In this document: in pieces, positions 24,047 to 47,375 of the stretch
Numbering within the stretch: the stretch's first letter is position 1
How the letters are laid out: each line of letters opens with the position of its first letter
Assembly: GCA_025677605.1 (NCBI GenBank)
Contig: GCA_025677605.1_4110.1
Reading direction: 5' to 3' (one strand)
From: a phage
Length of the DNA stretch: 64,000 bases
Translations under genes and position numbers: made by a program
Notes under the pieces: generated by a model
What the model was told of the DNA's origin: nothing
What the model saw: the letters and a program-made list of their open reading frames with translations, nothing else
The model's database searches: none

Positions 24047-24430
24047 TTACCTATAGCATTTGAGCACTGTAACCAATCCCTCTGCATTCTTGAAATGCAT
24101 TAAAGACAATGAACTATCAACGTACTGCAATGATATAATTACATCCTGTTCTGTGTGTTTGAATAAAAATTCCTGTACCGAATTCGTACCATAATACATG
24201 TACTTCGTTGCTTCAATCTGCAAATAAGGCACTTCTGTATTGTGTAAAAAGATATTGATTATTTCATTATTCTGTAATCTGCAATCAAATTTGTATGTTT
24301 CATATAACGGTACATCCGATGATGCCTGTACTGCCTGTACTGCCTGTGCTGCATGAGCGGTGTTTATAAATGATAAAAACACAAATGTTAAAATGAATAT
24401 GATTTTATTGAACATGTTTTGTTTCCTCAA
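24047..24430 (-). CDS. putative secreted protein (signal peptide)
   Basis: 127 aa; N-terminal hydrophobic signal FILTFVFLSFINTAHA then AQAVQAVQA repeat. Confidence 0.5.
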   Translation of the reverse strand: MRKQNMFNKIIFILTFVFLSFINTAHAAQAVQAVQASSDVPLYETYKFDCRLQNNEIINIFLHNTEVPYLQIEATKYMYYGTNSVQEFLFKHTEQDVIISLQYVDSSLSLMHFKNAEGLVTVLKCYR

Positions 24431-24624
24431 TAATGTTTGTACTTGTGTAAAATTCTATCCTGTACTGAAAGATGCTCAAATATAATTACACTCAAATAAT
24501 AATTGTAATCATTGATACCACCCCTCAAATGCATATTGTAATACAGCTTAATACTATCTAATAATGAATCCTGTAATGCATGTAATGCATTTAATGTCTT
24601 TGCATCTATCATCATCTTTCCCAT
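24427..24624 (-). CDS. hypothetical small protein
   Basis: 65 aa ORF, coupled. Confidence 0.4.
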   Translation of the reverse strand: MGKMMIDAKTLNALHALQDSLLDSIKLYYNMHLRGGINDYNYYLSVIIFEHLSVQDRILHKYKHY

Positions 24625-25013
24625 TTAATAGGGTATTCCGTTTCATTCACTACATACGACATAATCCATCCGTAATGGATAGGATGATATTTGTCTGAAT
24701 CAGGAATAAAATATAAAGCTGTACTGGGATTATAACTGAAGAAATCCCTCTCGTCAAATGTTAATCTGGCTAACTTAATTTTCCTTGGAATTGCATGAGG
24801 ACGAACTGCATTCTTTACACAGAATATACCATCTTTGTATTTTGGTTCGATAACACCCAATGCACTCTGGATTAACTCCTGAAAGACTAAATTGATTTGT
24901 GCAAATGAATCCTTGTTGTTATGCATTTCGTGCCATAAATCTCGTCTTGCATTTAACATCATTATTACTGGTCTAAGATCCTGTACTATTGTTAGATTCT
25001 GCATTGTATTCAT
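24612..25013 (-). CDS. hypothetical protein
   Basis: 133 aa ORF. Confidence 0.45.
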   Translation of the reverse strand: MNTMQNLTIVQDLRPVIMMLNARRDLWHEMHNNKDSFAQINLVFQELIQSALGVIEPKYKDGIFCVKNAVRPHAIPRKIKLARLTFDERDFFSYNPSTALYFIPDSDKYHPIHYGWIMSYVVNETEYPIKWER

Positions 25014-25230
25014 TTATCTCATTCTGTAACTTAACAACCAAAATTTGCGTATGAATTTTTCGCTCAAGGTGCTTGATAAATTTCTGTACCATTTCTTCTT
25101 GTACTGATGTACCAAGATAAAATAACATATTAAATTCTGATAATCGCAGAGCAAAATCTTCATCGCCCCCCTGTAAACAAAAATCCCTGTACTTCGATGC
25201 GTACAAATGATGGTTTACATTTTTGTACAT
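24973..25230 (-). CDS. LGT-motif family small protein
   Basis: 85 aa; FYLGTSVQEEMV. Confidence 0.5.
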   Translation of the reverse strand: MYKNVNHHLYASKYRDFCLQGGDEDFALRLSEFNMLFYLGTSVQEEMVQKFIKHLERKIHTQILVVKLQNEINEYNAESNNSTGS

Positions 25231-25433
25231 TTAGACTCCTTTGGTGTGCATACTATCTCTGTTCGTAAAGCCCTTATGTATGCATCAACGAATTGTGGCT
25301 GTGCTCTCGTTCCTAGATAAAATAATAAATCGAACTCTGCCATTTTAACATTAAAAGGATCTGAATCTACATTTCGAATAAACTGTCTGTACTTCAATTC
25401 ATATCCGTTAGGCATCTTCTTGTATACTATCAT
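25215..25433 (-). CDS. LGT-motif family small protein
   Basis: 72 aa; FYLGTRAQPQFV. Confidence 0.5.
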   Translation of the reverse strand: MIVYKKMPNGYELKYRQFIRNVDSDPFNVKMAEFDLLFYLGTRAQPQFVDAYIRALRTEIVCTPKESKCTKM

Positions 25434-25743
25434 ATTCTATACAATCACCTCTTTTAATCGAATCCCAAACTTCTTTCATCCTCTTCTGTAAACTGCACAT
25501 AATATCTATATCAAACATATAAGGGTCATGAATTAGACTGTACTGAAATAATTCATCTTCCTGCATAAGAGAAAGATCCTGAAGCAACTCGTACTTACCT
25601 AAACTCCTGGGACTCAAATAAGCAAAATATTCTTTACCGTCCTCAAAAACATAATGTACTTCATGATTCATGTACTTCTTGTAATTCTCATGCGTATAAG
25701 CAAATATACAACCGGAATTAATTCGGTGAATGTTGAATTTCAT
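25408..25743 (-). CDS. FQ-motif family protein
   Basis: 111 aa; motif EDELFQYSLIH. Confidence 0.6.
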   Translation of the reverse strand: MKFNIHRINSGCIFAYTHENYKKYMNHEVHYVFEDGKEYFAYLSPRSLGKYELLQDLSLMQEDELFQYSLIHDPYMFDIDIMCSLQKRMKEVWDSIKRGDCIEYDSIQEDA

Positions 25744-25752
25744 ATTAATCTC

Positions 25753-26109
25753 TTATACGTAAATTGGATGAATATTTTGAAGGAAATGCTTAGAAATATT
25801 CATACATGATATCATCTGCCTTTGTACTTCCTTCATCTCTTTGTATGTCAACCCAAAAGAATCATCGTATACTAACATGTACTGAAACTCTTCTTCTTCA
25901 GAGATATCAACTAGATTCGGTACTGCTATCGTATTTTCATATGATTTGATACCTTCTACCCAATAGAAACAATTATCAACTTTATTGTACTCAAATATCT
26001 TAACCCCAGGCCCACCCTGTACATTGGTCAACGCAATGAAACATGTATTCGCTCTTTTTATACAATTGATCTTACGCATTATCGCATTATCTCCATCTCT
26101 CTCCGTCAT
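25753..26109 (-). CDS. FQ-family-like protein
   Basis: 118 aa; EEEEFQYMLVY. Confidence 0.55.
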   Translation of the reverse strand: MTERDGDNAIMRKINCIKRANTCFIALTNVQGGPGVKIFEYNKVDNCFYWVEGIKSYENTIAVPNLVDISEEEEFQYMLVYDDSFGLTYKEMKEVQRQMISCMNISKHFLQNIHPIYV

Positions 26110-26332
26110 CGCAAGAGTACTGGTACGTTGTCGTTAGGGTAGGAATCATGTTCGTAATCGGCATATTATTCACAATAACCGTTACGGGCATCATAACCGT
26201 CTCTTTTCTACTCTGTCCTGTCTTTGTGCAATTCATCTTGTGCATTTCATCTGAATCCAGATACGCTAATACAAACGGTGCAATCCCAAGAACAATACAC
26301 AAGACGATAAGGAAATTTAAAAATTTTAACAT
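26087..26332 (-). CDS. small membrane protein
   Basis: 81 aa; N-terminal hydrophobic helix FLNFLIVLCIVLGIAPFVLAY. Confidence 0.45.
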   Translation of the reverse strand: MLKFLNFLIVLCIVLGIAPFVLAYLDSDEMHKMNCTKTGQSRKETVMMPVTVIVNNMPITNMIPTLTTTYQYSCDDGERWR

Positions 26333-26370
26333 AATCTGTACCCTATGATTAACGTTAGTGTACTATAGCA

Positions 26371-26601
26371 CTACAATAGAGTACTGTCAACTGCTTTGTT
26401 CTCTATTATACTCATTAAACCCCAAATTAGATAACGAACACTATCAGCTTGATAGTTAGTACCTACTGTGCATTTTAAAATTAACTCATCTTTCAGTACT
26501 GCACGTTCTTCTTGGGATATAGGAAGAGAATTTATTTGTTTTATTTGTGGTTGTAAAGTATTAATAAGCTTGCAGTACTCTTCGAATGATAATCTTTTCA
26601 T
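26371..26601 (-). CDS. LGT-motif family small protein
   Basis: 76 aa; KCTVGTNYQADSV. Confidence 0.5.
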   Translation of the reverse strand: MKRLSFEEYCKLINTLQPQIKQINSLPISQEERAVLKDELILKCTVGTNYQADSVRYLIWGLMSIIENKAVDSTLL

Positions 26602-26604
26602 GGT

Positions 26605-26946
26605 TCAGTACTCAATAATGTGTTCTTCATAAGCACTATTAGGCTCCTGTTTAGTTTCTTTTATTAGTACTATCATCTTATGTGCCAATGGCATAGGAAA
26701 CTCTAAATCCCATACTAATGATTCTTGAAAGTATTCTTCTTCAGATAAAGTACTTAAATCTTCAATGTCAATGTGTTCGTACATGTTATATTTGTAATCA
26801 GCAAAAGATATATAAAAACCTCTTGTAGAATCGTAAGTAATCGTGAATGGCTTACCTTTGTAGTCCATTACATCTTTACATAGACTGCATTTGATATATG
26901 TACTTGCAAATGATTTATAAACCTTAAGTTGAATATTAGTTTTCAT
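26605..26946 (-). CDS. FQ-motif family protein
   Basis: 113 aa; motif EEEYFQESLVW. Confidence 0.6.
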   Translation of the reverse strand: MKTNIQLKVYKSFASTYIKCSLCKDVMDYKGKPFTITYDSTRGFYISFADYKYNMYEHIDIEDLSTLSEEEYFQESLVWDLEFPMPLAHKMIVLIKETKQEPNSAYEEHIIEY

Positions 26947-26948
26947 TT

Positions 26949-27170
26949 TTAAACACCTATTCCATTAGCAATAGCAGTACTTAACGCTAACAAATACTTC
27001 TGTACTGCTTGCTCTTGATGATCTGTACCTAAAAGTATATACACCCATAATTCACTGTAGTGTACATCTTCTGTATAAGGGTTGTTGTAACTTTTTGATA
27101 ATATAGCATCAAATTCAGATGCATGAACCCTTGTGAACTTAAGAATATCTTGTTGTGTTATGATTCTCAT
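26949..27170 (-). CDS. LGT-motif family small protein
   Basis: 73 aa; ILLGTDHQEQAV. Confidence 0.55.
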   Translation of the reverse strand: MRIITQQDILKFTRVHASEFDAILSKSYNNPYTEDVHYSELWVYILLGTDHQEQAVQKYLLALSTAIANGIGV

Positions 27171-27382
27171 AGCTTTTCCTGTATAAGCTTCTTAAGTATT
27201 TCTATGTGTGAATTAACAGTTCTTTCTTGATGCTGTGTTCCTAAGAGTATCAGTACTATCATCTCTGAACGCAAAAGATTTTTTTCAAGTTCCCCTATAT
27301 CAGTTCTTGTATCAAGTACTAAAAATTTGTGATTATTCTTTCTGAATAGTTCTAAGTACTCTTGATTTGATATTGTCTTCAT
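27167..27382 (-). CDS. LGT-motif family small protein
   Basis: 71 aa; LILLGTQHQERTV. Confidence 0.55.
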   Translation of the reverse strand: MKTISNQEYLELFRKNNHKFLVLDTRTDIGELEKNLLRSEMIVLILLGTQHQERTVNSHIEILKKLIQEKL

Positions 27383-27609
27383 AGTTTATCCCTGATGCCA
27401 TTTAAAAGTGCTCTAATATGCTCCTGTACGAATTTGTACTGACTGTCTGTTCCTAGAGTGAGTAACAATCTTAAATCTGAACTTTTGATATGATATTCTA
27501 AATCATTATTTGATTCTTGCCTCAGTTTCTGAAAGGATGAGAAGTTTGCTGCCATTAGTTCAATGTATTCTGCTGTTCCTAGGGGTTTGTGTATGTGCTG
27601 TCTGTGCAT
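27379..27609 (-). CDS. LGT-motif family small protein
   Basis: 76 aa; LTLGTDSQYKFV. Confidence 0.55.
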   Translation of the reverse strand: MHRQHIHKPLGTAEYIELMAANFSSFQKLRQESNNDLEYHIKSSDLRLLLTLGTDSQYKFVQEHIRALLNGIRDKL

Positions 27610-27815
27610 TTTAATTGTATTACCCTTTTAAGTGTATTAATATAATCCACGATGATGTGTTCTTGATAGTTAGTTCCTATAGTAGCTAGAACATAGATTT
27701 CACTTATTAGAATATTTTTTTCATCCTGTGATAATTCTTCTGACCAGCTACGATGCAACTTTGGAATTAAACTACTTAATAGTTGGTTGTATTCAGTAGG
27801 TGAAATGATTTTCAT
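27579..27815 (-). CDS. LGT-motif family small protein
   Basis: 78 aa; LATIGTNYQEHII. Confidence 0.55.
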   Translation of the reverse strand: MKIISPTEYNQLLSSLIPKLHRSWSEELSQDEKNILISEIYVLATIGTNYQEHIIVDYINTLKRVIQLKCTDSTYTNP

Positions 27816-28027
27816 TTACATCTTCTCAGTACTGATTCTTTAAGTTCATCGATGTAGTCCTCAACAAATTGTTCTTGTAGGTTTGTTCCGAGATGTAACA
27901 GTACTCTTAAATCTGCTCTAAGTACTTCTTTGTCATCTTCATCTATATCAGACAGTGATATGTTTAAGAATTTACTTGAATTCTCTATAAGTAATATTAC
28001 TTCATCACCTTCGCTTAAAATTTTCAT
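27812..28027 (-). CDS. LGT-motif family small protein
   Basis: 71 aa; LHLGTNLQEQFV. Confidence 0.55.
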   Translation of the reverse strand: MKILSEGDEVILLIENSSKFLNISLSDIDEDDKEVLRADLRVLLHLGTNLQEQFVEDYIDELKESVLRRCK

Positions 28028-28239
28028 AATCTTTGTGTTTTCCTCGACAGTAGGTACAGGTAACGTTCAGTGCATTGTTCTTGATAGTTTGTTCCTAATA
28101 AATGAACTAATTGTTGTTCAGCTATAGAAAGCTGTTTATCTTCATAACAAGCGTATCGTTGTTTCCTATGGTATTCTTTATTGATAACATCAAGGATGAT
28201 AACACCGTATTCGTCATCTGTCAAGTGTTTCATGTGCAT
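28024..28239 (-). CDS. LGT-motif family small protein
   Basis: 71 aa; VHLLGTNYQEQC. Confidence 0.55.
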   Translation of the reverse strand: MHMKHLTDDEYGVIILDVINKEYHRKQRYACYEDKQLSIAEQQLVHLLGTNYQEQCTERYLYLLSRKTQRL

Positions 28240-28471
28240 TTCTTTTTCTTATATGTTTAGTTAAAAGGTATATTAGTTTTCTTACGTACTCGTCTTGATA
28301 GTTAGTCCCTAATAGTGCAAGAAGTTTTGCTTCAACTAAAGCTAATTGTCGTTCTTCAAATGTGTGTTCCAGAATGTACTTGGGGTTTGATTTTTTAGAA
28401 ATTGCACTATTAGTCTTCATTATAATCTTATGATATTCATTGACTGTTAAGATTTTTATATATTTGGTCAT
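28214..28471 (-). CDS. LGT-motif family small protein
   Basis: 85 aa; LALLGTNYQDEYV. Confidence 0.55.
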   Translation of the reverse strand: MTKYIKILTVNEYHKIIMKTNSAISKKSNPKYILEHTFEERQLALVEAKLLALLGTNYQDEYVRKLIYLLTKHIRKRNAHETLDR

Positions 28472-28727
28472 GTATCTTTTCCTGAATAGTCATTTTAAGA
28501 TATCTAAGAATCGATCGAACATAATACTCCTGTCTATCGGTTCCAAGAAAGTACAGGAGTTGTTGATATAATACTTCTGCACTCCTTGCAGCAGGGGTTT
28601 GATTTGGGTCTTTTGGAAGTTGATTTGTATGTTTTCTGGATTTAATTATTCTTTCTTTTATTTCATCGTCTGTTAAGTATATCATTTGCATTTTATGTTC
28701 CTCACATGAATTGTTTGGATTAAACAT
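28437..28727 (-). CDS. LGT-motif family small protein
   Basis: 96 aa; YFLGTDRQEYYV; start likely internal. Confidence 0.5.
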   Translation of the reverse strand: MFNPNNSCEEHKMQMIYLTDDEIKERIIKSRKHTNQLPKDPNQTPAARSAEVLYQQLLYFLGTDRQEYYVRSILRYLKMTIQEKIHDQIYKNLNSQ

Positions 28728-28918
28728 TCAATCCAAGATGTAACATATCTTGTTTGATATTGTGTGCCTAAGAGACTCTGCATTTTAAACTCTGCTTCAA
28801 GTTCATATCTCTTTTCTATCGTAAAGCTTAAATGACCATATTCTGCATCGTATCTTCTCAGTGATTCCCCAATTCTATCAAATCTTTCTGCTAAGTTGAT
28901 GTTATTCACAGTATTCAT
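28682..28918 (-). CDS. LGT-motif family small protein
   Basis: 78 aa; SLLGTQYQTRYV. Confidence 0.55.
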   Translation of the reverse strand: MNTVNNINLAERFDRIGESLRRYDAEYGHLSFTIEKRYELEAEFKMQSLLGTQYQTRYVTSWIECLIQTIHVRNIKCK

Positions 28919-29178
28919 CGATCAGTACACCTCAGTGGTTGGGTCATTTGATAAAAGTACAGCTTACCTCTGATTTCCATTAACAACTCGGCTATGACGC
29001 GATTTACTTCTGTCTCTTGATAGTTTGTTCCTAAGAAGACACCCATCTTTAACTCACGATGCATAATCATCTTCTTACTGTGTTGAATTTCTTGGCTGTA
29101 ATAGATTGCATTACGTTTAGGTGAGATTTTTGCTAGTCGCTCGTTATATTCATCTTGACTTAAATTAATCATTTGCAT
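28915..29178 (-). CDS. LGT-motif family small protein
   Basis: 87 aa; VFLGTNYQETEV; N-terminus MQMINLSQDEY. Confidence 0.55.
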   Translation of the reverse strand: MQMINLSQDEYNERLAKISPKRNAIYYSQEIQHSKKMIMHRELKMGVFLGTNYQETEVNRVIAELLMEIRGKLYFYQMTQPLRCTDR

Positions 29179-29393
29179 TTACTTTGGACCTCATTTTGAA
29201 GTGCATTAATGACCTTCAGTACAGCACTCGCTTGATAGTTTGTTCCTAAGACTGAAAGCATCTTGATCTCATTTACTACAATCCACTTATTTGATTGTTC
29301 AATAATGTGACTTTCATAAATGGCCTTGCGTAATGAATAAGTTTTTGCAAGACGTACATAATATTCATCTTTACTTAAATTAATCATTTGCAT
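29169..29393 (-). CDS. LGT-motif family small protein
   Basis: 74 aa; SVLGTNYQASAV; N-terminus MQMINLSKDEY. Confidence 0.55.
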   Translation of the reverse strand: MQMINLSKDEYYVRLAKTYSLRKAIYESHIIEQSNKWIVVNEIKMLSVLGTNYQASAVLKVINALQNEVQSKCK

Positions 29394-29602
29394 TTACTTT
29401 TAACCTCTTTCTGGAGTGCATCAATCCATAGGTCTATATACGTTTGTTGATAGTTTGTGCCTAAGAGTGCCTCTACATAGAGTTCAGCTACCTTTGCGTG
29501 CTTTAGGTCAACAGGGATGCTCTTATCGCTTGATAACATTCTCCTTCTGCTGGTGCATGTTTTCAGAAGCCTGATGTATTCAACACCTTGTAATTTTCTC
29601 AT
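29384..29602 (-). CDS. LGT-motif family small protein
   Basis: 72 aa; ALLGTNYQQTYI. Confidence 0.55.
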   Translation of the reverse strand: MRKLQGVEYIRLLKTCTSRRRMLSSDKSIPVDLKHAKVAELYVEALLGTNYQQTYIDLWIDALQKEVKSKCK

Positions 29603-29814
29603 TCTCTGGATATCACCTTGTTACGTAGACTTGCTAACCATGCGTCAGTATAGATGTTTTGATAGTTTGTCCCAATGAAGATAGATAGCTTCATTTCAGT
29701 TATTATAACACATTTGTCCACTTGTGCAATAGATTTGTTTAAAGAAATACTAGAAACTTTTGCTTGTATAGTTCGCAACAGCCTGTAATATTCATACCCA
29801 CTAAGGATTTTCAT
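29599..29814 (-). CDS. LGT-motif family small protein
   Basis: 71 aa; IFIGTNYQNIYT. Confidence 0.55.
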   Translation of the reverse strand: MKILSGYEYYRLLRTIQAKVSSISLNKSIAQVDKCVIITEMKLSIFIGTNYQNIYTDAWLASLRNKVISRE

Positions 29815-30061
29815 TCTCTCGTCTCCAGACTTCCGTTCTTATATGTTGTTGATATGCTTCCAGATAGTTCTCTATTGCCTTAGAGATTGTTTGTGTATCG
29901 TCGCCCGTCATCAGTACAAGCATCTCTGCTTCACAGTGTATAAGTCTGCTAATATCATTAGTGAGTTTATCAGATACCGTATCATAGTGTTTGTGGATTA
30001 GTTTCTGAAATAGTTTAACGTACATAATGTGATTTATTCTGGATCGCATTGTCTTTTCCAT
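29801..30061 (-). CDS. LGT-family-like small protein (diverged)
   Basis: 86 aa; VLMTGDDTQTIS at the family motif position. Confidence 0.45.
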   Translation of the reverse strand: MEKTMRSRINHIMYVKLFQKLIHKHYDTVSDKLTNDISRLIHCEAEMLVLMTGDDTQTISKAIENYLEAYQQHIRTEVWRRENENP

Positions 30062-30285
30062 TCTCTTTTGGCCTGTCGGGTTTTATACGCTACAAGGTTT
30101 CTTAGTGCATTGATATAACGATCAGTGAAGATATCTTGTTTATTAGTTCCAACGAATTTAAGAAGAAACACGTCACCATTAACTACATCATTCTCAGGGG
30201 AAGGATAAAGTTCATTGTTCTTGCGAAGGGTGTTTAGTAAAGAGAATAGGGCAGATTGATACTCAGTGCTTGATAATACTTTCAT
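30034..30285 (-). CDS. LGT-motif family small protein
   Basis: 83 aa; KFVGTNKQDIFT. Confidence 0.55.
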   Translation of the reverse strand: MKVLSSTEYQSALFSLLNTLRKNNELYPSPENDVVNGDVFLLKFVGTNKQDIFTDRYINALRNLVAYKTRQAKREWKRQCDPE

Positions 30286-30509
30286 TAGTTCATTCCCTTT
30301 CTTTCTATATGTTTCATAAGAACATTAAGATACTCACCCACAAACCTATTCTGATACTGCGTCCCCATGAATTCAAACAGCCATACTTCAGCAACCATTT
30401 CTTCAATTTCATTCCAAGATAAGTACATCATAGTGAAGTAAATGTGGTTCTCTTTTTGAGATGCACTCCTTGAGCGAGCCTCGTATTCAAAGTTATTAAT
30501 GCAGTTCAT
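30285..30509 (-). CDS. LGT-motif family small protein
   Basis: 74 aa; EFMGTQYQNRFV. Confidence 0.55.
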   Translation of the reverse strand: MNCINNFEYEARSRSASQKENHIYFTMMYLSWNEIEEMVAEVWLFEFMGTQYQNRFVGEYLNVLMKHIERKGMN

Positions 30510-30718
30510 AGTTTACTCCTGATGTATTTCTCAAGAGCTATTAGATACTCTTGGACATAAGATTTCTGGTGGTCAGTTCCTAAGAAGACACCCAGAAGTA
30601 ATTCTTTTTCCATAACTTTTGATAAGTATACATCATCCCTGTCTGCATATATCAGCAAGATTTCAATCTGCTTAGAATTGTAACGTTTCCTATATTGCTC
30701 TGGTGTTAATATAATCAT
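30506..30718 (-). CDS. LGT-motif family small protein
   Basis: 70 aa; VFLGTDHQKSYV. Confidence 0.55.
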   Translation of the reverse strand: MIILTPEQYRKRYNSKQIEILLIYADRDDVYLSKVMEKELLLGVFLGTDHQKSYVQEYLIALEKYIRSKL

Positions 30719-30924
30719 AGTTTACTCTTTATATCTTCAATTAAAAATCCAATACAATCATTGACATACTCTTCCTGAAAGTTAGTCCCCAGTACAGCCA
30801 ACATGCGATACTCTGCTGACCTTATCGCTCTTTCAGTTTTTGGTAAGTTACGTGGTATAGTTACCATCAATTCAAGATACTCCACCATACGACTCAATGC
30901 TTGTCTTTGTGTTATAGTTTTCAT
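30715..30924 (-). CDS. LGT-motif family small protein
   Basis: 69 aa; AVLGTNFQEEYV. Confidence 0.55.
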   Translation of the reverse strand: MKTITQRQALSRMVEYLELMVTIPRNLPKTERAIRSAEYRMLAVLGTNFQEEYVNDCIGFLIEDIKSKL

Positions 30925-31121
30925 AATTTACACCTCGCTCGTATGTCAGCTTTCAAAGATTCCAAATAGTGCGTTACCCACACTTCCTGATAGTTGGTTC
31001 CCATCGTAATCAACAGGTACAACTCAACTCTTTCTAAGTGCACATTGCTTTGGTAAATCCTTGCCGTGTTTTTACGTAGTATATGATGATATTCATCTTG
31101 GGTTAATGTACGCATTTTCAT
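30921..31121 (-). CDS. LGT-motif family small protein
   Basis: 66 aa; ITMGTNYQEVWV. Confidence 0.55.
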   Translation of the reverse strand: MKMRTLTQDEYHHILRKNTARIYQSNVHLERVELYLLITMGTNYQEVWVTHYLESLKADIRARCKL

Positions 31122-31315: not shown

Positions 31316-31349
31316 AGGGCAAATTCCATAGGTTCATATATGAAAAAAC

Positions 31350-35924: not shown

Positions 35925-36329
35925 TTATTCGCCCATATAGATTAGATTATCATCGCCCACATAGGGATCGCAAACGTTGATTTCTTCGCAGTACTTAGTG
36001 AATACATCGTCATAGTGACCGATATCACGATCCCAAAAGCCAGTACCGTGACCTTCGCGAGTAAGAAAGAGATCATGACCTGCATGATTATAAGTATAAT
36101 CAGGATTATGGTGTTTTTGTACTGCTTCCATTTCATTACTAAACTTTTCAAGGAAACGAGAACATGCAATCACCGCCGCTTGATGGGCTTGCTCTGATAA
36201 TTCGTAATCTTCCAGGTAGTCGCCGTTCTCATTGTGTACAGTACTGAATTGCATAGCTTCAATGTAACCAGCGACCATAGCAGCATGATTTTTATCGTTG
36301 GCGATGTTCCGGGCTTGATTAGTAGTCAT
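35925..36329 (-). CDS. hypothetical protein
   Basis: 134 aa; ATG 36327-36329; PeSL upstream. Confidence 0.55.
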   Translation of the reverse strand: MTTNQARNIANDKNHAAMVAGYIEAMQFSTVHNENGDYLEDYELSEQAHQAAVIACSRFLEKFSNEMEAVQKHHNPDYTYNHAGHDLFLTREGHGTGFWDRDIGHYDDVFTKYCEEINVCDPYVGDDNLIYMGE

Positions 36330-40054: not shown

Positions 40055-40095
40055 AGATACATTTATGCACCCGGTGGGCTAGTTTTTGTCTATGC
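40055..40095 (-). repeat. conserved noncoding element, copy 3
   Basis: atgcacccggtgggctag; hairpin 40107-40136. Confidence 0.45.
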
Positions 40096-40147
40096 ATATA
40101 TAATAGCAAAGGGACTGACCGGAGTCAATCCCTTTTTTCAATTTATT

Positions 40148-40297: not shown

Positions 40298-40467
40298 GCT
40301 ACGGCCCCCTTGTCGGCTTTACCTTTACGCCAGGACGTTACTAATTGTTCGCGTTGCCATAAGTCGAGTGATACAAAAAGTTTTGCGGTATCACCCTTCG
40401 GATATTCGCCAGTAGTACCCATCCGATAAAACAAATCTTTCAGTACTGACAATTCTACATGGATCAT
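40294..40467 (-). CDS. hypothetical small protein (below ORF-track cutoff)
   Basis: 57 aa MIHVELSVLKDLFYR...; RBS aggag 9 nt upstream. Confidence 0.4.
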   Translation of the reverse strand: MIHVELSVLKDLFYRMGTTGEYPKGDTAKLFVSLDLWQREQLVTSWRKGKADKGAVA

Positions 40468-40468
40468 T

Positions 40469-40558
40469 TTAGATAACTCCTGCTTTGCTTAAGTAAACTA
40501 ATACGGCCTGTACTGCCATAATGATTGCAATTACTACTATGAACGGATTCATGTGCAT
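40469..40558 (-). CDS. possible hydrophobic mini-peptide
   Basis: 29 aa MHMNPFIVVIAIIMAVQAVLVYL...; single predicted helix. Confidence 0.25.
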   Translation of the reverse strand: MHMNPFIVVIAIIMAVQAVLVYLSKAGVI

Positions 40559-40645
40559 AACTGTTACCCTTATATGGTGGGGAGAAAACTTCTCCCCTTG
40601 ATGTAATTAATTATACAGTACTGTGATACTTTGTCAAATACTTTT

Positions 40646-40858
40646 TTAATCTTTCAGCCAATGATCTTGGATGAATTTTTCACCGAAGCCTTGCTGCATG
40701 GATTGTAACAGGCGTTCACGGTGTGCGGCGGCAAACTGCTCAGTACTATGCGTTACACCTGGTTGATATCTGGATTCACCATTGGGGGCGATGTATTGTA
40801 CATCCCACGGTTTAGCGTTAGTATCAGACCATTTACGAACGATTAGTTGACCTTGCAT
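40646..40858 (-). CDS. hypothetical small protein
   Basis: start moved to MQGQLIVRKW (ATG 40856-40858); ORF-track extension is the reverse of the 5' hairpin. Confidence 0.5.
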   Translation of the reverse strand: MQGQLIVRKWSDTNAKPWDVQYIAPNGESRYQPGVTHSTEQFAAAHRERLLQSMQQGFGEKFIQDHWLKD

Positions 40859-40944
40859 TTTTCTTTCCTCAGTACTGGGGAGAATCATTTCTCCCCTTCA
40901 TGTAACTTATTATACAGTACTATAATCTATTGTCTAGTACTTTT

Positions 40945-41139
40945 TTAAAGTTTATGTATCAGTTCTTTATCTAAGCGATAGCGTACATTATTAATAGTAA
41001 CGGCATTGTTTTTAATGCTACGCTGTACAGGTCCACCAGCAATAACAAACGTTGCCTTATTACCCCGAACAATGATAGCACTTCCTGGATTGCCGTATTC
41101 ATCTTGTACTAAAATACTTGATAAGTTTTCCATTTTCAT
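40945..41139 (-). CDS. hypothetical small protein
   Basis: 64 aa; RBS aagaggaa. Confidence 0.5.
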   Translation of the reverse strand: MKMENLSSILVQDEYGNPGSAIIVRGNKATFVIAGGPVQRSIKNNAVTINNVRYRLDKELIHKL

Positions 41140-41293
41140 TTCCTCTTAGTAGGGGAAGATGTTTCCCCTTCATGTAAAACATTATACACTATCTTTCAGT
41201 ACTGTCAATTACTTTTTAGTACTTATTTAAACGCTCTCAATCGCATTCTAACGAGCTAATCTATTTTGTAGTACTATCGGATAGGTATATACT

Positions 41294-41323
41294 AAAAAGC
41301 CCACCAGCGTTAACCAGTGGGCT
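41294..41323 (-). terminator. rho-independent terminator
   Basis: AGCCCAC...GTGGGCT hairpin followed by T-run on minus strand. Confidence 0.5.
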
Positions 41324-41329
41324 ATAATC

Positions 41330-41473
41330 TTACATCTTGCGGATAATCTTAACAGTATCTTTCACCGATTTACCGTCTTGCTGGCATTGTTCGATCATTG
41401 CGTATTGTTCTGCGGTCAGATCTTCGCCAGTTTTTGCCAGTACTGCTTCGATGAATGAATCCAGTGCGATCAT
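41330..41473 (-). CDS. hypothetical small protein (below ORF-track cutoff)
   Basis: 47 aa MIALDSFIEAVLAKTGEDL... Confidence 0.35.
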   Translation of the reverse strand: MIALDSFIEAVLAKTGEDLTAEQYAMIEQCQQDGKSVKDTVKIIRKM

Positions 41474-41572
41474 TTTGTTTCTCTCTTAGGTTAAGTTAAC
41501 TACTGTTTATAAAACTTATTATACAGTACTATCAAACTATGTCAATATCTTTAATAGTACTGGTAATATATT

Positions 41573-41752
41573 TTAGCGGTAGTCGTCGTATGCTTTATTC
41601 ACCTGGCGAATGTAACTTTCAAAGGCTTCGTCTACCGTTTCATACTCCCGAACATAATCACCATAGGAAACTACATACATCCCTTTTTGATCTTCAAACG
41701 TCATGATGATAGAATCCAGGCCGATGATTTCAGTTTTTGCGATGATAGCCAT
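41573..41752 (-). CDS. hypothetical small protein (MAII family)
   Basis: start moved to MAIIAKTEII with RBS aaggaa; paralog of 45097..45309 with the same promoter sequence upstream. Confidence 0.5.
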   Translation of the reverse strand: MAIIAKTEIIGLDSIIMTFEDQKGMYVVSYGDYVREYETVDEAFESYIRQVNKAYDDYR

Positions 41753-41834
41753 TTTTAATTCCTTAGTAGTGTAGTTGATAAAATCTATTATGCCAGTACT
41801 ATCAATCTTTGTCAATAGTACTGTGATAATATTT

Positions 41835-42047
41835 TTAATCGATAATGGTTAATGTAAAGTTATAATCACCGCATCGATATAGCACGTTATTCCCAAATGT
41901 TCCAACCAATCGCACATCACACAAAACGCCAGTTTTTTCTTTTACTTCCTTGATACTTGTAACTCCTGTAATATCTTTATTAAAGTATTCATGGTCTGAA
42001 AATAAAACTTGTTTTGCATTTTTCAATTTCGACCGGATATTAGCCAT
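41835..42047 (-). CDS. hypothetical small protein
   Basis: 70 aa; ATG 42045-42047. Confidence 0.5.
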   Translation of the reverse strand: MANIRSKLKNAKQVLFSDHEYFNKDITGVTSIKEVKEKTGVLCDVRLVGTFGNNVLYRCGDYNFTLTIID

Positions 42048-42142
42048 TTTGTTTTCTCTCTCTGTTAGTGGGGAGAACTATTCTCCCCTTGATGTAAACT
42101 ATTATACAGTACTATAATCTATTGTCAAACTATTTTTTAATA

Positions 42143-42484
42143 TTATTCGAAATCTTCTGGACCGGACTGATAATCATCTTCACCGTATGCACTTTCTAAC
42201 TTCTCGCCAGTGCAATCATCAGTTAGTGAGTCATCCTCATAGTTCACGTCTACGCCCGTGATGTAAAACTGGCTATCGTATGGATCATTGAAATTAATTT
42301 TCTGAATGTTTACAATAACTGTATTGATGCCCAGGACACCGCCATCAGCCGTTACAAAGTACTGATAGTTTTCACATCCACCACTATTGAAACCGTAATT
42401 GATTTCGGCCCGACCATCATTTAAACGCAGTGCCTGAGCGATGAATTCGTTTTCAAAGTTAGATTGAGCAATTGCAATAGTCAT
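42143..42484 (-). CDS. hypothetical acidic protein
   Basis: 113 aa; ATG 42482-42484. Confidence 0.5.
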   Translation of the reverse strand: MTIAIAQSNFENEFIAQALRLNDGRAEINYGFNSGGCENYQYFVTADGGVLGINTVIVNIQKINFNDPYDSQFYITGVDVNYEDDSLTDDCTGEKLESAYGEDDYQSGPEDFE

Positions 42485-42583
42485 GATTCGTTTCCTTATT
42501 ACCAGGGGAAACGGTTTCCCCTTGCTATGTAAAACATTATACTTGATTCTAAGTACAATGCAAGTACTTTTTGCAAAATACTT

Positions 42584-42766
42584 TTAATCCCTTTGATACT
42601 CACATAACGCCATATCATACGCAATTGACGCTGATTTGAAATCATCGTGTCGCTCAATCTCTTTCATGTCAACATAGATGATCCATAGGTTTACGTCTTC
42701 CTGGCGTATGATAACGGCAGGTTTACCGATGATATGTGATGCCGCTAGTTCGATTGGATTAAACAT
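42584..42766 (-). CDS. hypothetical small protein
   Basis: 60 aa; RBS aaggag. Confidence 0.5.
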   Translation of the reverse strand: MFNPIELAASHIIGKPAVIIRQEDVNLWIIYVDMKEIERHDDFKSASIAYDMALCEYQRD

Positions 42767-42799
42767 TGTAGTACTCCTTATTAGATTGATATATTTTAT

Positions 42800-42840
42800 T
42801 TACACTTCCGCACCCTGTGGGCTAGTGAGCTATCTCTCAA
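42800..42840 (-). repeat. conserved noncoding element, copy 4
   Basis: ccgcaccctgtgggctag; hairpin 42859-42886. Confidence 0.45.
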
Positions 42841-43108
42841 TGAATATATAATAGCAAAATGGCTGACCGAAGTCAACCACTTTTTTCATTTATTTTTAGC
42901 TTTTAGAATCGCCGCTTTTCGCGTCATGCCTTGCTTGATGTACTCCTTTACTTTCGCTTTACGTGCTTTCGCTTTATCTGCTTTCGTTTTAGGAGTACTG
43001 TAAATTAAACCGTTAGGATTCATTTAAATCACCATAAAGAATAGATAGGTTACTAACAATGCCGCGATCAATGCACCGATCACCGCCGAACTGTAATAAG
43101 CCAATGAT

Positions 43109-43261
43109 TTCATTTTTTAGCCTGGAAGTAATGTTTAATTTGTGCGGCGGTCAATGCACAATTACGCAGGAAGTTTTCTGTATAACTGCGACGAGTACTG
43201 AAAGAAAATTGACCTTTGCCGTTGCCGATAGTAACATCAAACCGAGCATTATATTGTTTCA
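43109..43261 (-). CDS. hypothetical small protein (below ORF-track cutoff)
   Basis: 50 aa MKQYNARFDVTIGNGKGQF...; followed by two further mini-ORFs 43023..43112 and 42885..43022. Confidence 0.3.
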
Positions 43262-43575
43262 TTTTGATTCTCCTAGTATCAGGGGAGAACCATTTCCCCC
43301 CCCTCTATGTAAAACATTATACAGTACTAAAAACTAATTGCAAGTACTATTTTTTAGATTTACGCAAACTTTCTACCATCTCAGGAGTAAGGCCCGGCGG
43401 GTAGGAAACCACTTCATCAACGAAACGTAAAGGGAATACCCCAGCGAAAGGTGAACATGCTTTCTTAGTATTACTCTTTTTTGATGCTTTCATTTCATAT
43501 TCCTTAATTAGTGGGAAGTACTATTTCTCCCCTTCATGTAAAACATTATACAGTACTAAAAACTAATTGCAAGTA

Positions 43576-43818
43576 TTATTTTAAACTTTGTGCGACTAAT
43601 TTCGCACGGTCAATCATATACTGCCATTTTTTGATCTCTTCTGGTAGAAAACGATATTCACCAATAACAATAGTGATACACTTTTCAGCCTGGTCAATGT
43701 ATGTAGTGTCAATCTCGACTTGAACGGGTACACGTTCGCCGTAATCAGTGCCAGGGATAATACAATCATTATCATAAGTAACAGTAGTAGCAGTGTCTTT
43801 GATTAAAATTGTTTCCAT
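43576..43818 (-). CDS. hypothetical small protein
   Basis: 80 aa; ATG 43816-43818. Confidence 0.5.
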   Translation of the reverse strand: METILIKDTATTVTYDNDCIIPGTDYGERVPVQVEIDTTYIDQAEKCITIVIGEYRFLPEEIKKWQYMIDRAKLVAQSLK

Positions 43819-43888
43819 TATACTTTCCTCGTTAGGTGTAAGGGGAAAAAGTTTCCCCTCTATGTAAACAATTATACAGTACTGAAAA

Positions 43889-44098
43889 CTAATTGCAAGT
43901 ATTATTTTCTAAAAAATGATTGTATGCTGCATCAACCACTCTTTCGATAACATACGCCAACGGCACGTATCCAACTACATGACTACAATAGAAAGGACTA
44001 CGATTAGAATCATCGTATGCAAATACTTTACCAGGTACGGCATCAATCACATACATATTAACCTTTAAGATGTCGATCTTATCCTGTACAGTAAGCAT
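43889..44098 (-). CDS. hypothetical small protein
   Basis: start moved to MLTVQDK (ATG 44096-44098). Confidence 0.45.
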   Translation of the reverse strand: MLTVQDKIDILKVNMYVIDAVPGKVFAYDDSNRSPFYCSHVVGYVPLAYVIERVVDAAYNHFLENNTCN

Positions 44099-44099
44099 A

Positions 44100-44270
44100 T
44101 TACGCCGCCTTATCAGTACTAGCAACCGGACGGATACGGGCCATCGCCTGGGCTTGTTCTACGCTGTATTGTTCGTATAGTCTGCATTCTTCCGGTGTAG
44201 GAATAGCATCAATACGTTTCATTGGTTTAATGATGCTTTCAACTTCATTCAGTACTTGATTAACGTTCAT
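44100..44270 (-). CDS. hypothetical small protein (below ORF-track cutoff)
   Basis: 56 aa MNVNQVLNEVESIIKP... Confidence 0.35.
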   Translation of the reverse strand: MNVNQVLNEVESIIKPMKRIDAIPTPEECRLYEQYSVEQAQAMARIRPVASTDKAA

Positions 44271-44321
44271 GGTATTATCCTCAATATTAGCGGCCTAAAT
44301 CAACCGCTAACGATGTTTTGA

Positions 44322-44591
44322 TTAATAGGTGTATGGTTGACGCTCAAACAATGAATAGACGTTATACGCCCCGCTAATGGGCTTCGCTGGCAAATCAATT
44401 TTATATTGTTCACGCTTAAAGATAATAAAACGGCAATTGTTTTTTACATCAAAATTGATTGAACGTTCCAGGAGTTTTCCATCGTGTACAAATACAAGAT
44501 AACCGCTTGGTACTTGTTTTGTAGTACTGGTTGCAACCATAGACCGACGAACATGCGTACCTGCATCGATTAAAGTACTGATATTTTTCAT
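44322..44591 (-). CDS. hypothetical protein
   Basis: 89 aa; ATG 44589-44591. Confidence 0.5.
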   Translation of the reverse strand: MKNISTLIDAGTHVRRSMVATSTTKQVPSGYLVFVHDGKLLERSINFDVKNNCRFIIFKREQYKIDLPAKPISGAYNVYSLFERQPYTY

Positions 44592-44671
44592 TATACTATC
44601 CTCTTAAGTTAATTTAATTTCTTTCCCCTATGCAGACACTATATCAAAGTATCTGCATAAAGTAAAGCTAA

Positions 44672-45016
44672 TTAAAGATCTTTTTTGCGTTTAACATCAG
44701 TTACCGAACTGTAAACAGTGATATTATTGTCACGGCAAAAACGGGAAAGATAAGAACCGCGTAAAAACTCTTTACCTTCCATATCAATAACCTTGCTAAA
44801 TTCATCCATTGCTACGGTGTCAAAGTGATCCCCGTATCCATATTGGAACGGCACGTTTACTACTTCAATAAAATTACCATCAATTTCTACGTCTACACTT
44901 AAAGAGAAATAAGTGTTACCATATGAAGCCTGGAACCAACGCCGAGCGGCAATATGTACAACTTCAACAGAAGACAGGTTGATATTTTGTGCTGTGATAG
45001 TGTTGATGTTAGCCAT
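44672..45016 (-). CDS. hypothetical protein (paralog of 38875..39198)
   Basis: 114 aa; ...YGYG...DVKRKKDL. Confidence 0.55.
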   Translation of the reverse strand: MANINTITAQNINLSSVEVVHIAARRWFQASYGNTYFSLSVDVEIDGNFIEVVNVPFQYGYGDHFDTVAMDEFSKVIDMEGKEFLRGSYLSRFCRDNNITVYSSVTDVKRKKDL

Positions 45017-45096
45017 TTTTAGTTTCCTCAGTTGTTTTGATAAAATCTATTATGCCAGTACTATCAATCTATGTCAATAGTACTGTGATAATAATT

Positions 45097-45309
45097 TTAC
45101 TTACTTTCTTTCGATGCTTTATGTTGTGCAACTGCCATTACTACATCAGCACGAACAAAGTTTTTAACCGTGTCAGTGTAATAATTGATTGCATCGTCTA
45201 TATCTGCGAACGTCCGATACATACCGCACCAAGATACTTTATAACCTGCTTTCACTTGTTCCAGCTTAACCAGTGATTTGTTTACTTTGATTTTAGTAAT
45301 GATAGCCAT
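45097..45309 (-). CDS. hypothetical small protein (MAII family)
   Basis: 70 aa MAIITKIKV... Confidence 0.5.
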   Translation of the reverse strand: MAIITKIKVNKSLVKLEQVKAGYKVSWCGMYRTFADIDDAINYYTDTVKNFVRADVVMAVAQHKASKESK

Positions 45310-45391
45310 TTTTTGTTTCCTCTTAGTTGTCTTGATAAAATCTATTATGCCAGTACTATCAAACTATGTCAATAGTACTGTGATAATATTT

Positions 45392-45535
45392 TTACTTACT
45401 TTTTGCTTTCTTTGCTGCTTCCACCTGGTCGGCCCACTCTTTACCCCATACTTGAGCATTATAGTGATACTGACAAAGAGCAACGCCCCGCTTCAAACCA
45501 GTAATAGATTTTTTACCACATTGACAAGTTTTCAT
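45392..45535 (-). CDS. small Cys-rich protein (possible zinc ribbon; below ORF-track cutoff)
   Basis: 47 aa MKTCQCGKKSITGLKRGVALCQYH...; paralog of 39287..39469. Confidence 0.4.
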   Translation of the reverse strand: MKTCQCGKKSITGLKRGVALCQYHYNAQVWGKEWADQVEAAKKAKSK

Positions 45536-45622
45536 TTTAGTTTCCTCTTAGTGGGGAGAACCATTTTCTCCCCTTGATGTAATGTATTATACTTTATCTG
45601 ATTTACTTTGCAAGTACTTTTT

Positions 45623-45850
45623 TTAATTTAATTCATCCAGGCAAAGGATACGCTCAACGCCCAAATCAGTTAAACTAATAGACGGCACTTGATAGGTTTC
45701 AACGTATTCTACACTCGCCCACTGACCGAACTCATTCACCGCCCAGGTATTCATTGCAAAATGTAATTCCGCACCTTTCTTATTAGTAATTACAGCAACA
45801 GTAGAAGAATTGCCAGTAGTACCAGATACGCGAGTGATTACGATAGCCAT
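45623..45850 (-). CDS. hypothetical small protein
   Basis: 75 aa; ATG 45848-45850. Confidence 0.5.
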   Translation of the reverse strand: MAIVITRVSGTTGNSSTVAVITNKKGAELHFAMNTWAVNEFGQWASVEYVETYQVPSISLTDLGVERILCLDELN

Positions 45851-45920
45851 TGTTTTGATTCCTATTCAGTAGTTGATGTATGTATTATCGCAGTACTTAA
45901 AACTATTGTCAAACTATTTT

Positions 45921-46073
45921 TTAAAGTTTATCAATGATTGATGCCGTTTCATTGATAGTCTTGCCGTGTTTTGCACACGCGATAACTGCTTTAAATTCCT
46001 TTGATGACCAATCTTTTTTACTGCATACTGACATTACTTGTAAAGTGAAACAATCCAGTTCATAAGTATTCAT
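45921..46073 (-). CDS. hypothetical small protein (below ORF-track cutoff)
   Basis: 50 aa MNTYELDCFTLQVMSVCSKK... Confidence 0.3.
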   Translation of the reverse strand: MNTYELDCFTLQVMSVCSKKDWSSKEFKAVIACAKHGKTINETASIIDKL

Positions 46074-46253
46074 CTTTATATCCTCAGTTAGTTAAGGTGT
46101 CTCGCCTTGATGAAATTAATTATACGCTAATCTCTTAATCGTGCAAGTACTTTTTATTAGTTTTTGCAAAATACTTTAAACGCCCGCAATCGCATTCTAA
46201 CGACCTTAACGCCACCAGCTAGGGCGATGCATCAGATAATCAGTTTAATGCGT

Positions 46254-46267
46254 TAGAATCGATTCTA
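46254..46267. promoter_or_regulatory. perfect 14-bp palindrome TAGAATCGATTCTA (candidate operator)
   Basis: seen directly; half-site ATCGCATTCTAACG recurs at about 41236 and 51443. Confidence 0.4.
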
Positions 46268-46299
46268 GGCGGTGCTGGGGGCATGGTAAACGATAAACA

Positions 46300-46327
46300 C
46301 AAAAAAGCCCACTGTTTAAGGTGGGCT
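46300..46327 (-). terminator. rho-independent terminator
   Basis: AGCCCAC-tgtttaag-GTGGGCT with T-run on minus strand, just downstream of the 46349 stop. Confidence 0.55.
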
Positions 46328-46348
46328 AGTGATTCAGTACTTTAATTG

Positions 46349-46831
46349 TTATGCTTCAACTTTGCGATGAGCTTCGATCCATTCCTCGCGAGTCAATCCG
46401 CTTTCTTTGATAGCATCCAGTACTACGGCAATGCAGTTACCGCGTACTGGTACAGTGTATTCCTCGCCATTATCCAGAACTACCGGCACGCGTTCCTGAA
46501 TCCATTTTTTAGCTTTTACTTCTGGCTTGTCTTCCCCGTATTTCGCTGCCAGGGCTTTACGTGCCATTTCGGTTACTACTTCCAGATCAAGCCCAGCGAC
46601 GGCGGCGTTAATATCTTCAATCGTTTTCTGCAATTCAGCTTCGCGTGCTGCCTTCTCAGCTTCAAGTGCCGCCGCTTTATTAGCTTGTAGTTCTTTCGCT
46701 TCGCTGTACGCAATGTTAAAATTGTTGCGTACTGCTTTCATGGTATCGCTATCCAGTTCAGCCAGGATCTCAGCCGCTACGTTAGTTTCATTTGCTACCA
46801 GTGCTTTGATGAATGATTTTACATTAGCCAT
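46349..46831 (-). CDS. hypothetical Ala/Glu-rich protein (locally higher GC)
   Basis: start at MANVKSF (ATG 46829-46831) behind RBS gaggaa; coiled-coil-like AAALEAEKAAREAELQK. Confidence 0.55.
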   Translation of the reverse strand: MANVKSFIKALVANETNVAAEILAELDSDTMKAVRNNFNIAYSEAKELQANKAAALEAEKAAREAELQKTIEDINAAVAGLDLEVVTEMARKALAAKYGEDKPEVKAKKWIQERVPVVLDNGEEYTVPVRGNCIAVVLDAIKESGLTREEWIEAHRKVEA

Positions 46832-46884
46832 TATATAATTCCTCAATTAAAGTTTAGTTTACGTTTATTAGTGTATCAAAGTTT

Positions 46885-46948
46885 TCTTGACGTGTCCAGT
46901 TTTTCGTTCGACTTACTGGCGGTCTACTTAGTGTTCCCCGTCTTGATG
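46885..46948 (-). other. structured RNA element, diverged copy C
   Basis: CCAGT/ACTGG hairpin and CCCCGTCTTGATG tail; promoter TTGACA, 16 nt spacer, TAGAAT at 46955-46982. Confidence 0.35.
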
Positions 46949-47030
46949 TAATACATTCTACGCTTTTCTTCGGTAATGTCAACTACTTTTTTAAAACTAT
47001 TTTCAAAGTATCTCAGTACTACACCACTAC

Positions 47031-47058
47031 AAAAAAAGCCCACTGTTTAAGGTGGGCT
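47031..47058 (-). terminator. rho-independent terminator
   Basis: same AGCCCAC...GTGGGCT hairpin as 46300-46327. Confidence 0.55.
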
Positions 47059-47075
47059 ATTGATTCAGTACTAGA

Positions 47076-47375
47076 TTATAAACAGTTAATTACTCCTGTG
47101 TGCGTTACTTTCTCAGTATCCATAACCGTGACCGAACCGCGTTTTTTCTTCGCATCATAATAAATTGTTGTGCTACCTTTCGCATCTTCTTCATGGAACG
47201 GGCCATTTTTAAATGCTTCTGGCTGTAATTCCAGATCCTTTAAAACAATCTCGCCAGTACTTTCATCGGTCATTGCTACGGTGCACTGAATGAATTTATC
47301 ACCAGGTACATCTAACGACGCATTAACAGCGAAAGAGGAAACAGATAAAGCCAGGGCGATGATTGCTACTTTCAT
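47076..47375 (-). CDS. putative secreted/periplasmic small protein
   Basis: 99 aa; signal peptide MKVAIIALALSVSSFAVNAS. Confidence 0.55.
   Translation of the reverse strand: MKVAIIALALSVSSFAVNASLDVPGDKFIQCTVAMTDESTGEIVLKDLELQPEAFKNGPFHEEDAKGSTTIYYDAKKKRGSVTVMDTEKVTHTGVINCL

Follow-up and report, generated by a model that had tools for sequence, protein, structure and literature searches.

Two small open reading frames (ORFs) in a 64,000-nucleotide stretch of phage DNA (GenBank assembly GCA_025677605.1, contig GCA_025677605.1_4110.1; hereafter, the window) are, judging by their sequences and those of their relatives, real genes for small Sec-dependent pre-proteins. Since the products of both, ORF1 and ORF2, begin with what appear to be cleavable N-terminal signal peptides, they should be small exported proteins, and we regard their export to the periplasm as very probable. 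The window is that of an Asteriusvirus-like Escherichia coli jumbo phage: identity to phage A4 is 97% over 23-26 kb, that to phages G17 and Sharanji is about 92% over 46-49 kb, and nearly every gene in its first 57 kb is small and lies on the minus strand. An initial annotation, made from the letters of the window, had placed two small secreted proteins at 24047..24430 (ORF1) and 47076..47375 (ORF2), with classic signal peptides ending in AHA and VNA. Both ORFs and both sites are indeed present, and we add that both genes are on the minus strand. Treating the two as a pair did not hold up, since they lie 23 kb apart, are unrelated in sequence and occupy different genomic settings.

Both genes are under purifying selection (dN/dS, the ratio of nonsynonymous to synonymous substitution rates, 0.06-0.19), with values of 0.13-0.19 for ORF1 against its homologues and 0.06-0.17 for ORF2. 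The ATG of ORF2 is 7 nt from a Shine-Dalgarno (SD) sequence, AAGGA. ORF1 had been listed with a TTG start at 24430; this TTG shares sequence with the stop codon of the preceding ORF and forms part of the SD sequence GAGGA, and the true start is the ATG at 24415, the same Met at which the annotation of phage A4 begins the homologous protein. The start codon of the initial annotation is therefore replaced, while the signal peptide that it described survives. A start lying beyond the hydrophobic segment had also been considered there, but no in-frame Met that could serve as one is found just 3' of the segment in either gene, the next being M35 in ORF2 and approximately M72 in ORF1.

Signal peptides were scored with a simple heuristic of our own, which combines the n-, h- and c-regions with the (-3,-1) rule. 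In a set of 11 positive controls that included OmpA, PhoA, MalE, DsbA and T4 Sp, the heuristic placed cleavage at the known site in every case (11/11) and returned scores of 3.3-4.6, a range that contains the scores of both ORF1 and ORF2 (Table 1). Only 4 of the 156 minus-strand ORFs scored 3.9 or higher, the next best reaching 2.7, and residue-shuffled proteins yielded 0.1 +/- 0.3 ORFs at this level. The N-terminus of ORF1 reads MFNKIIFILTFVFLSFINTAHA up to the predicted cleavage site and AQAVQAVQASS after it; that of ORF2 reads MKVAIIALALSVSSFAVNA, then SLDVPG. Both have the charged n-region, the h-region of ~7-15 residues and the small residues at -3/-1 that characterize substrates of Sec and signal peptidase I, with an uncharged core of 13 residues in ORF1 and about 15 in ORF2.

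As evidence for signal peptides, conservation throughout the two families outweighs the heuristic score. The ORF2 family, with 23 distinct sequences, scored 3.4-4.3 throughout, and all five close members of the ORF1 family scored 4.07-4.54, with signal-peptide residues differing in both families. A charged start, a small-x-small site and a hydrophobic core are kept in each of the 23 ORF2-family sequences and five ORF1 relatives. The signal-peptide segment of ORF1 has a dN of 0.38-0.45, and the physicochemical pattern is nevertheless maintained in five homologues. In addition, SignalP/InterPro had led to an independent annotation of the homologue from Klebsiella phage Muenster as a 'putative secreted protein'. 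Direct reading of the ORF1 and ORF2 N-termini revealed neither a lipobox (Cys at +1) nor a twin-arginine motif, and no Cys lies within 10 residues of the predicted cleavage site of either protein (mature N-termini A23 and S20, respectively). T5 Llp and Cor-type lipoproteins are likewise small exported phage proteins, as ORF1 and ORF2 are predicted to be, and act in the envelope to block superinfection; since they carry a lipobox Cys at +1 and neither ORF does, membership of this group is ruled out.

The hydrophobic segments could also be uncleaved signal anchors, in which case the beta domain would face the periplasm while tethered to the inner membrane. An AF2 (AlphaFold2) model of ORF1 shows residues 4-28 as a single long helix, and a further small protein encoded at 26087..26332, with a hydrophobic stretch of ~22 residues, may well be of this type. 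However, the cores of ORF1 and ORF2 have a length that is typical for signal peptides that are cleaved and short for crossing a membrane, and a conserved small-x-small site follows the core in every homologue. We thus consider anchoring quite unlikely for these two proteins and favor cleavage.

ORF2 belongs, as judged by profile comparison, to an already existing but uncharacterized family, phrog_31669, which it matches over residues 1-99 of 99 (E=4.1e-60) and whose profile is also matched by 12/12 aligned relatives. Members include 121Q gp276, G17_00043, and Muenster gp039, the 'putative secreted protein' mentioned above. Homologues occur in essentially all Asteriusvirus genomes (68-93% identity) and, at 26-40% identity, in Alcyoneusvirus (Muenster, phiKp_21), the Munch/7t3/fENko-Kae01 group, Erwinia phage Hallingskeid, and some Vequintavirinae. 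Beyond these, searches of 5.8 billion proteins and of IMG/VR produced very few relatives, and a search for additional ORF2 loci returned only three. Comparison across lineages revealed no conserved neighbor gene that would hint at a partner or target. In alignments of 12-16 sequences, C31, G94, and C98 are invariant, and closer relatives also conserve the motifs MTDExTG, HEED..GSTT, and KG..T.MD. The mature parts of both the ORF1 and ORF2 families contain exactly two Cys, bar one member with four, and both mature domains are acidic (net charge -4 to -5).

An AF2 model of ORF2 built on a 16-sequence alignment has a predicted local distance difference test (pLDDT) score of about 86-93 over residues 31-99 and of <50 over residues 1-24, as expected of a signal peptide. 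From this model, in which the only helix is four residues long, we confidently predict that the mature domain is all-beta. When the model was compared to the PDB with Foldseek, none of 1059 matches reached E<=1e-3, the best of these weak matches being to LolA, lipocalins, Cap15, and designed barrels. Against BFVD, five matches reached E<=1e-3, namely the 121Q homologue and four unnamed entries, without functional annotation. Sequence searches of Pfam, NCBIfam, PADLOC, and the PDB with ORF1 and ORF2 gave nothing significant.

Since the ORF2 homologue of phage fEgEco12 (GenBank PP777464.1 g10; L001 2818..3117) is annotated as 'protein spackle', a relationship to T4 Spackle (gp61.3; PF25676, phrog_1586) was considered closely. 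The two proteins share a ~20-residue Sec signal peptide, a similar overall length (97 aa in Spackle vs 99 aa in ORF2), an acidic mature periplasmic domain of ~75-80 residues with one Cys near each end, and early expression, which is likely for ORF2. T4 Spackle is an early, periplasmic protein with a 75-residue, disulfide-bonded mature form that folds as a compact alpha-helical bundle (PMC7677548). On hhalign, full-length Spackle matched the ORF2 family with a probability (Prob) of 75% over residues 1-39, and there is a short C-x3-MT-x-[DE]-x-T resemblance. Once signal peptides were removed, however, the Prob fell to 0.5% over 10 columns. BLASTP of ORF2 against T4 Sp, using a query sequence confirmed as 100% identical to T4 orf 61.3, produced no alignment; the PHROG Spackle match was confined to residues 1-40 (E=0.17); and the Pfam T4_Spackle model matched just 1/16 ORF2-family members (E=0.27). 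Considering that homology is undetectable outside the signal peptide and that a helical bundle stands against a predicted all-beta domain, membership of ORF2 in the Spackle family was rejected. Because the match behind it is limited to the signal peptide, the 'protein spackle' annotation is most likely a signal-peptide-driven false positive, and the label of PP777464 g10 should not be propagated.

The lysozyme inhibitors MliC/PliC, Ivy, PliI, and PliG are also small, periplasmic, and mostly beta, as ORF2 is predicted to be, and in MliC the mature domain carries a Cys close to each of its ends. This Cys placement and a loose 'GSTT..Y...KKG' resemblance raised the possibility of MliC/PliC homology, which was rejected. 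Against a three-sequence MliC/PliC alignment, hhalign gave a Prob of 2.5-7% for ORF2 and <1% for ORF1, and the Pfam MliC/PliC model (PF09864) matched none (0/16) of the ORF2-family members at E<=1. ORF2 lacks the SxSGAxY loop motif as well as YxxxTKG, and its AF2 model has six strands. The MliC/PliC fold is an eight-stranded beta barrel. No MliC, PliC, or Spackle structure was among the top 50 Foldseek PDB matches listed for ORF2 (2F09 and 3F6Z are solved MliC/PliC structures). The view of ORF2 as a genuine, though divergent, Spackle or MliC/PliC-type inhibitor is therefore highly improbable and, as a matter of family membership, largely refuted.

ORF2 is, as read from promoter and terminator scans, a self-contained single-gene cassette comprising promoter, gene, and terminator (Table 1), and the annotation of phage G17 has a terminator at the equivalent position. 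At least 10 near-identical promoter cassettes, AAAAAGTACTTGCA-N16/17-TATAAT, occur at 45557..53160 (-), each upstream of a small gene and often with a GC-rich hairpin leader next. They correspond to repeat families D1/D2 and include the ORF2 promoter, 47417-47469 being the D2 reference copy. The hairpin energy of the ORF2 leader is not unusual (z = -0.65), a 15-mer of this leader recurs at 47706-47720, upstream of the neighboring ORF, and an Rfam search of the window gave no match. The ORF2 terminator is one of two identical 27-nt intrinsic terminators (AGCCCACCTTAAACAGTGGGCTTTTTT; 46301..46327 and 47032..47058, both minus strand) that are 731 bp apart and each end one of two adjacent single-gene cassettes. 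Just downstream of ORF2, 46854..46982 (-) has a promoter, TTGACA-16-TAGAAT, and one of its frames reads '...KSVECITSRRGTLSR..VSR'; downstream of the distant ORF2 homologue of phage UPEC06 (L005 1839..1952), the corresponding reading is '...KSVECITSGRGNISR..VSR'. These readings are more suggestive of a promoter/leader element conserved between Asteriusvirus and Vequintavirinae than of a real small ORF, and nothing in Rfam matches the element.

By an estimate from the coordinate offset of fEgEco12 matches, 45557..53160 is the counterpart of that phage's direct terminal repeat (~21 kb). The fEgEco12 repeat, of 20,993 bp, is experimentally supported (PMC13070987) and contains the ORF2 homologue at 5284-5583; homologues also lie inside the annotated terminal repeats of vB_Ec-M-J, fENko-Kae01, and Muenster. 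In PA5oct, a related jumbo phage, the genes of the terminal repeat are mostly early and have TTGAC/TATAATA promoters (PMC7318152). Since the fEgEco12 homologue lies within the ~21 kb repeat, ORF2 is, by analogy, probably transcribed early by host RNA polymerase.

Table 1. Positions of ORF1, ORF2, and their associated elements in the window.
Feature	Position	Strand	Description
ORF1 coding sequence, corrected start	24047..24415	-	122 aa + stop; ATG at 24415, SD sequence GAGGA 8 nt upstream
Shine-Dalgarno sequence GAGGA of ORF1	24424..24428	-	Direct reading; overlaps stop codon of upstream ORF 24427..24624
ORF1 signal peptide, residues 1-22	24350..24415	-	MFNK / IIFILTFVFLSFI / NTAHA; predicted cleavage after AHA, before AQAVQ; heuristic score 4.54
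ORF1 variable linker	24311..24349	-	AQAVQAVQASSDV; 9-bp (AVQ)n repeat; length varies between strains
ORF1 mature domain	24050..24310	-	Predicted all-beta; invariant C45 and C120 (alignment)
ORF2 coding sequence	47076..47375	-	99 aa + stop; full-length phrog_31669 match
ORF2 signal peptide, residues 1-19	47319..47375	-	MK / VAIIALALSV / SSFAVNA; predicted cleavage after VNA; heuristic score 3.97
ORF2 mature domain	47079..47318	-	80 aa, net charge -5; six beta strands and a short helix predicted (AF2); invariant C31 and C98
Sigma70-like promoter of ORF2	47428..47455	-	TTGCAA-16-TATAAT; promoter scan; one of at least 10 near-identical cassettes
ORF2 5' leader	47383..47413	-	GC hairpin GGGGAAC-G-GTTCCCC, then CCTGGTAACTAAGGA containing the SD sequence
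Intrinsic terminator directly 3' of ORF2	47032..47058	-	Terminator scan

T4 RI, which acts in lysis inhibition, is a small protein in which a periplasmic domain follows a hydrophobic segment at the N-terminus. ORF1 and ORF2 resemble it in size and layout, and the h-region of ORF2 is rich in Ala and Ser, so that the two might be lysis-timing regulators, antiholin-like or acting as RI does, or accessories of the lysis machinery. However, the neighborhoods inspected contain no annotated holin, endolysin, or spanin, all neighbors being given as 'hypothetical protein', and the cleavage site is a canonical AXA site, not that of a signal-arrest-release (SAR) anchor. The absence of a lipobox excludes both o-spanins and u-spanins, and ORF2 lies among the early-type cassettes of the region matching the terminal repeat rather than in a late lysis cluster. 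A role in lysis timing is accordingly improbable.

The distribution of ORF1 is much narrower. Its relatives are confined to phages A4 and Turkey3 and four metagenomic proteins, with none found in IMG/VR; an exhaustive search added a single distant relative, P0023 (121 aa, 45.6 bits in a single domain, both Cys kept), on an uninformative 1.1-kb contig. Since the genes flanking the position of ORF1 abut directly in phage G17, ORF1 represents a lineage-specific insertion of ~390 bp. Some strains have ORF1 and others lack it between the same flanking genes, and such patchiness is typical of accessory genes for exclusion or host interaction. ORF1 lies a few kb beyond the repeat, within a tightly packed array that has no terminators. 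The linker shows in-frame indels of 3, 6, and 13 codons in P0010, A4, and P0011/P0012. The (AVQ)n copy number thereby differs between strains (indels of 3 and 6 codons), and Turkey3-type homologues lack the entire 13-residue linker.

An assignment of ORF1 as an iota-carbonic anhydrase/NTF2-like repeat was rejected, there being no significant single-domain match. The match of PDB 7c5x to ORF1 had E=0.012-0.04, and each of the 11 repeats of P0021 contributes a match to ORF1 of about 27-30 residues and just 4.3-5.5 bits. The low total E-values of P0021 and of the junk repeat P0022 are artefacts, since they arise from ~5-bit matches summed over 10-11 repeats. Paralogy of ORF1 and ORF2 was rejected as well: BLASTP gave E=2.9, and hhalign paired the signal peptides only, with a Prob of 0.4% for the mature parts. 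By sequence comparison, then, the two are unrelated to each other.

The explanation that we favor, with moderate confidence when taken as a whole, combines Sec export, periplasmic beta domains, and an envelope-directed role. Signal peptidase I would remove the first ~19-22 residues of the two pre-proteins, and what is set free in the E. coli periplasm would in each case be an acidic all-beta domain of about 80-100 residues, soluble and non-lipidated. There, the conserved Cys pair, one near the mature N-terminus and the other at the extreme C-terminus, would probably be oxidized by DsbA to form a disulfide staple that closes the fold. ORF2 would have a transcript to itself, starting at a sigma70 promoter of host type and ending at the gene's own terminator, and would most likely be made in the first minutes of infection; its promoter-gene-terminator cassette and the terminal-repeat position of the fEgEco12 counterpart fit an early periplasmic factor. 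Our best guess is that ORF2, once in the periplasm, would target the envelope or incoming virions, in superinfection exclusion or protection from lysis from without, possibly by binding a murein hydrolase of the tail or some other entry component exposed to the periplasm. It would thus be a functional analogue, rather than a homologue, of T4 Spackle, an inhibitor of the tail-spike (gp5-type) lysozyme that provides the precedent. The patchy spread of the ORF2 family over several large enterobacterial myovirus lineages was counted in favor of this explanation. ORF1 would be a strain-specific accessory gene, inserted between two conserved genes of a polycistronic array next to the repeat, and may have a similar envelope-directed role.

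The initial annotation had proposed that such proteins often mediate superinfection exclusion or modify the envelope, and this is plausible here. We hold an exclusion or envelope-protection function only tentatively; confidence in any specific function is low because no homology, fold match, or conserved neighbor points to a target. A bolder proposal, and in our view a rather unlikely one, is that phrog_31669 is a new-fold, immediate-early periplasmic 'door-closing' factor that jumbo phages and other large enterobacterial myoviruses encode in the terminal repeat and that blocks wall penetration or DNA entry by later phages, with ORF1 as a second, strain-specific one. Spackle's solution would then have been reached through an unrelated, disulfide-stapled beta domain, for example by inhibiting a tail-associated murein hydrolase.

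Several points weigh against the explanation that we favor. The signal-peptide scores derive from our own heuristic and not from SignalP, and the early timing of ORF2 draws on its promoter consensus and the analogy to PA5oct rather than on measurement. The AF2 model of ORF1 has eight strands and is of low confidence (pLDDT 57.6); Foldseek comparison of this model to the PDB returned FABP/CRABP-like barrels only, all insignificant, the model being too poor. Finally, there is no pointer to function, the Pfam, NCBIfam, PADLOC, and PDB sequence searches and the Foldseek searches of PDB and BFVD having given noise or uncharacterized relatives only.

Alternatively, ORF1 and ORF2 might be periplasmic counter-defense or host-takeover factors that neutralize a host envelope component, such as an anti-phage effector, a protease, or a nuclease. 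The same evidence of export and the early-type cassette of ORF2 would be equally in keeping with this, and acidic mature domains would suit a basic partner. A host periplasmic defense acting on DNA entry, the HXS system, has also been reported recently (PMC13128918). However, neither protein is similar to known anti-defense proteins, the PADLOC search was empty, and the neighborhoods offer no conserved gene suggestive of a target; we therefore consider counter-defense unlikely and retain the exclusion or envelope-directed role as our preferred reading.

Other features of the window were also recorded. The small protein encoded at 26087..26332 (-), missed by the initial annotation, is 81 aa long, has the top heuristic score in the window (4.83), and reads MLKFLN/FLIVLCIVLGIA/PFVLA before the predicted cleavage site and YLDSDE after it, with two Cys in its C-terminal part; its hydrophobic stretch could be a signal peptide or, equally, an uncleaved membrane anchor. 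A hydrophobic 64-aa ORF at 35942..36136 (-) also had a high signal-peptide score and is probably spurious, as it lies out of frame inside a plausible 134-aa gene (35925..36329). At 26949..30718 (-), about 18 ORFs of 70-96 aa are tightly packed, often overlapping, with no intergenic space, and this run looks like an array of paralogous small genes. A perfect-register tandem duplication of 63 bp (90% identity, D9) occurs at 49766..49891, at the 5' end of a 224-aa ORF (49204..49878). Several diverged direct-repeat families (D3, D4, D5, D12), with a spacing of about 184-198 bp, occupy 53924..56476, a stretch that is poor in long ORFs and near the expected end of the terminal repeat.

ORF1 and ORF2 join the well-known class of small exported phage accessory proteins and are otherwise an ordinary finding; other phage genomes that we inspected, such as that of Muenster, also list a putative secreted or membrane protein, and nothing indicates an unusual mechanism. 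Superinfection exclusion and envelope manipulation are, however, essentially unstudied in jumbo phages, and ORF2, at 99 aa, with its own promoter and terminator and with conservation across several genera, is a compact and easily testable candidate. Since Asteriusvirus phages are considered for therapy cocktails, exclusion between cocktail members would matter there.

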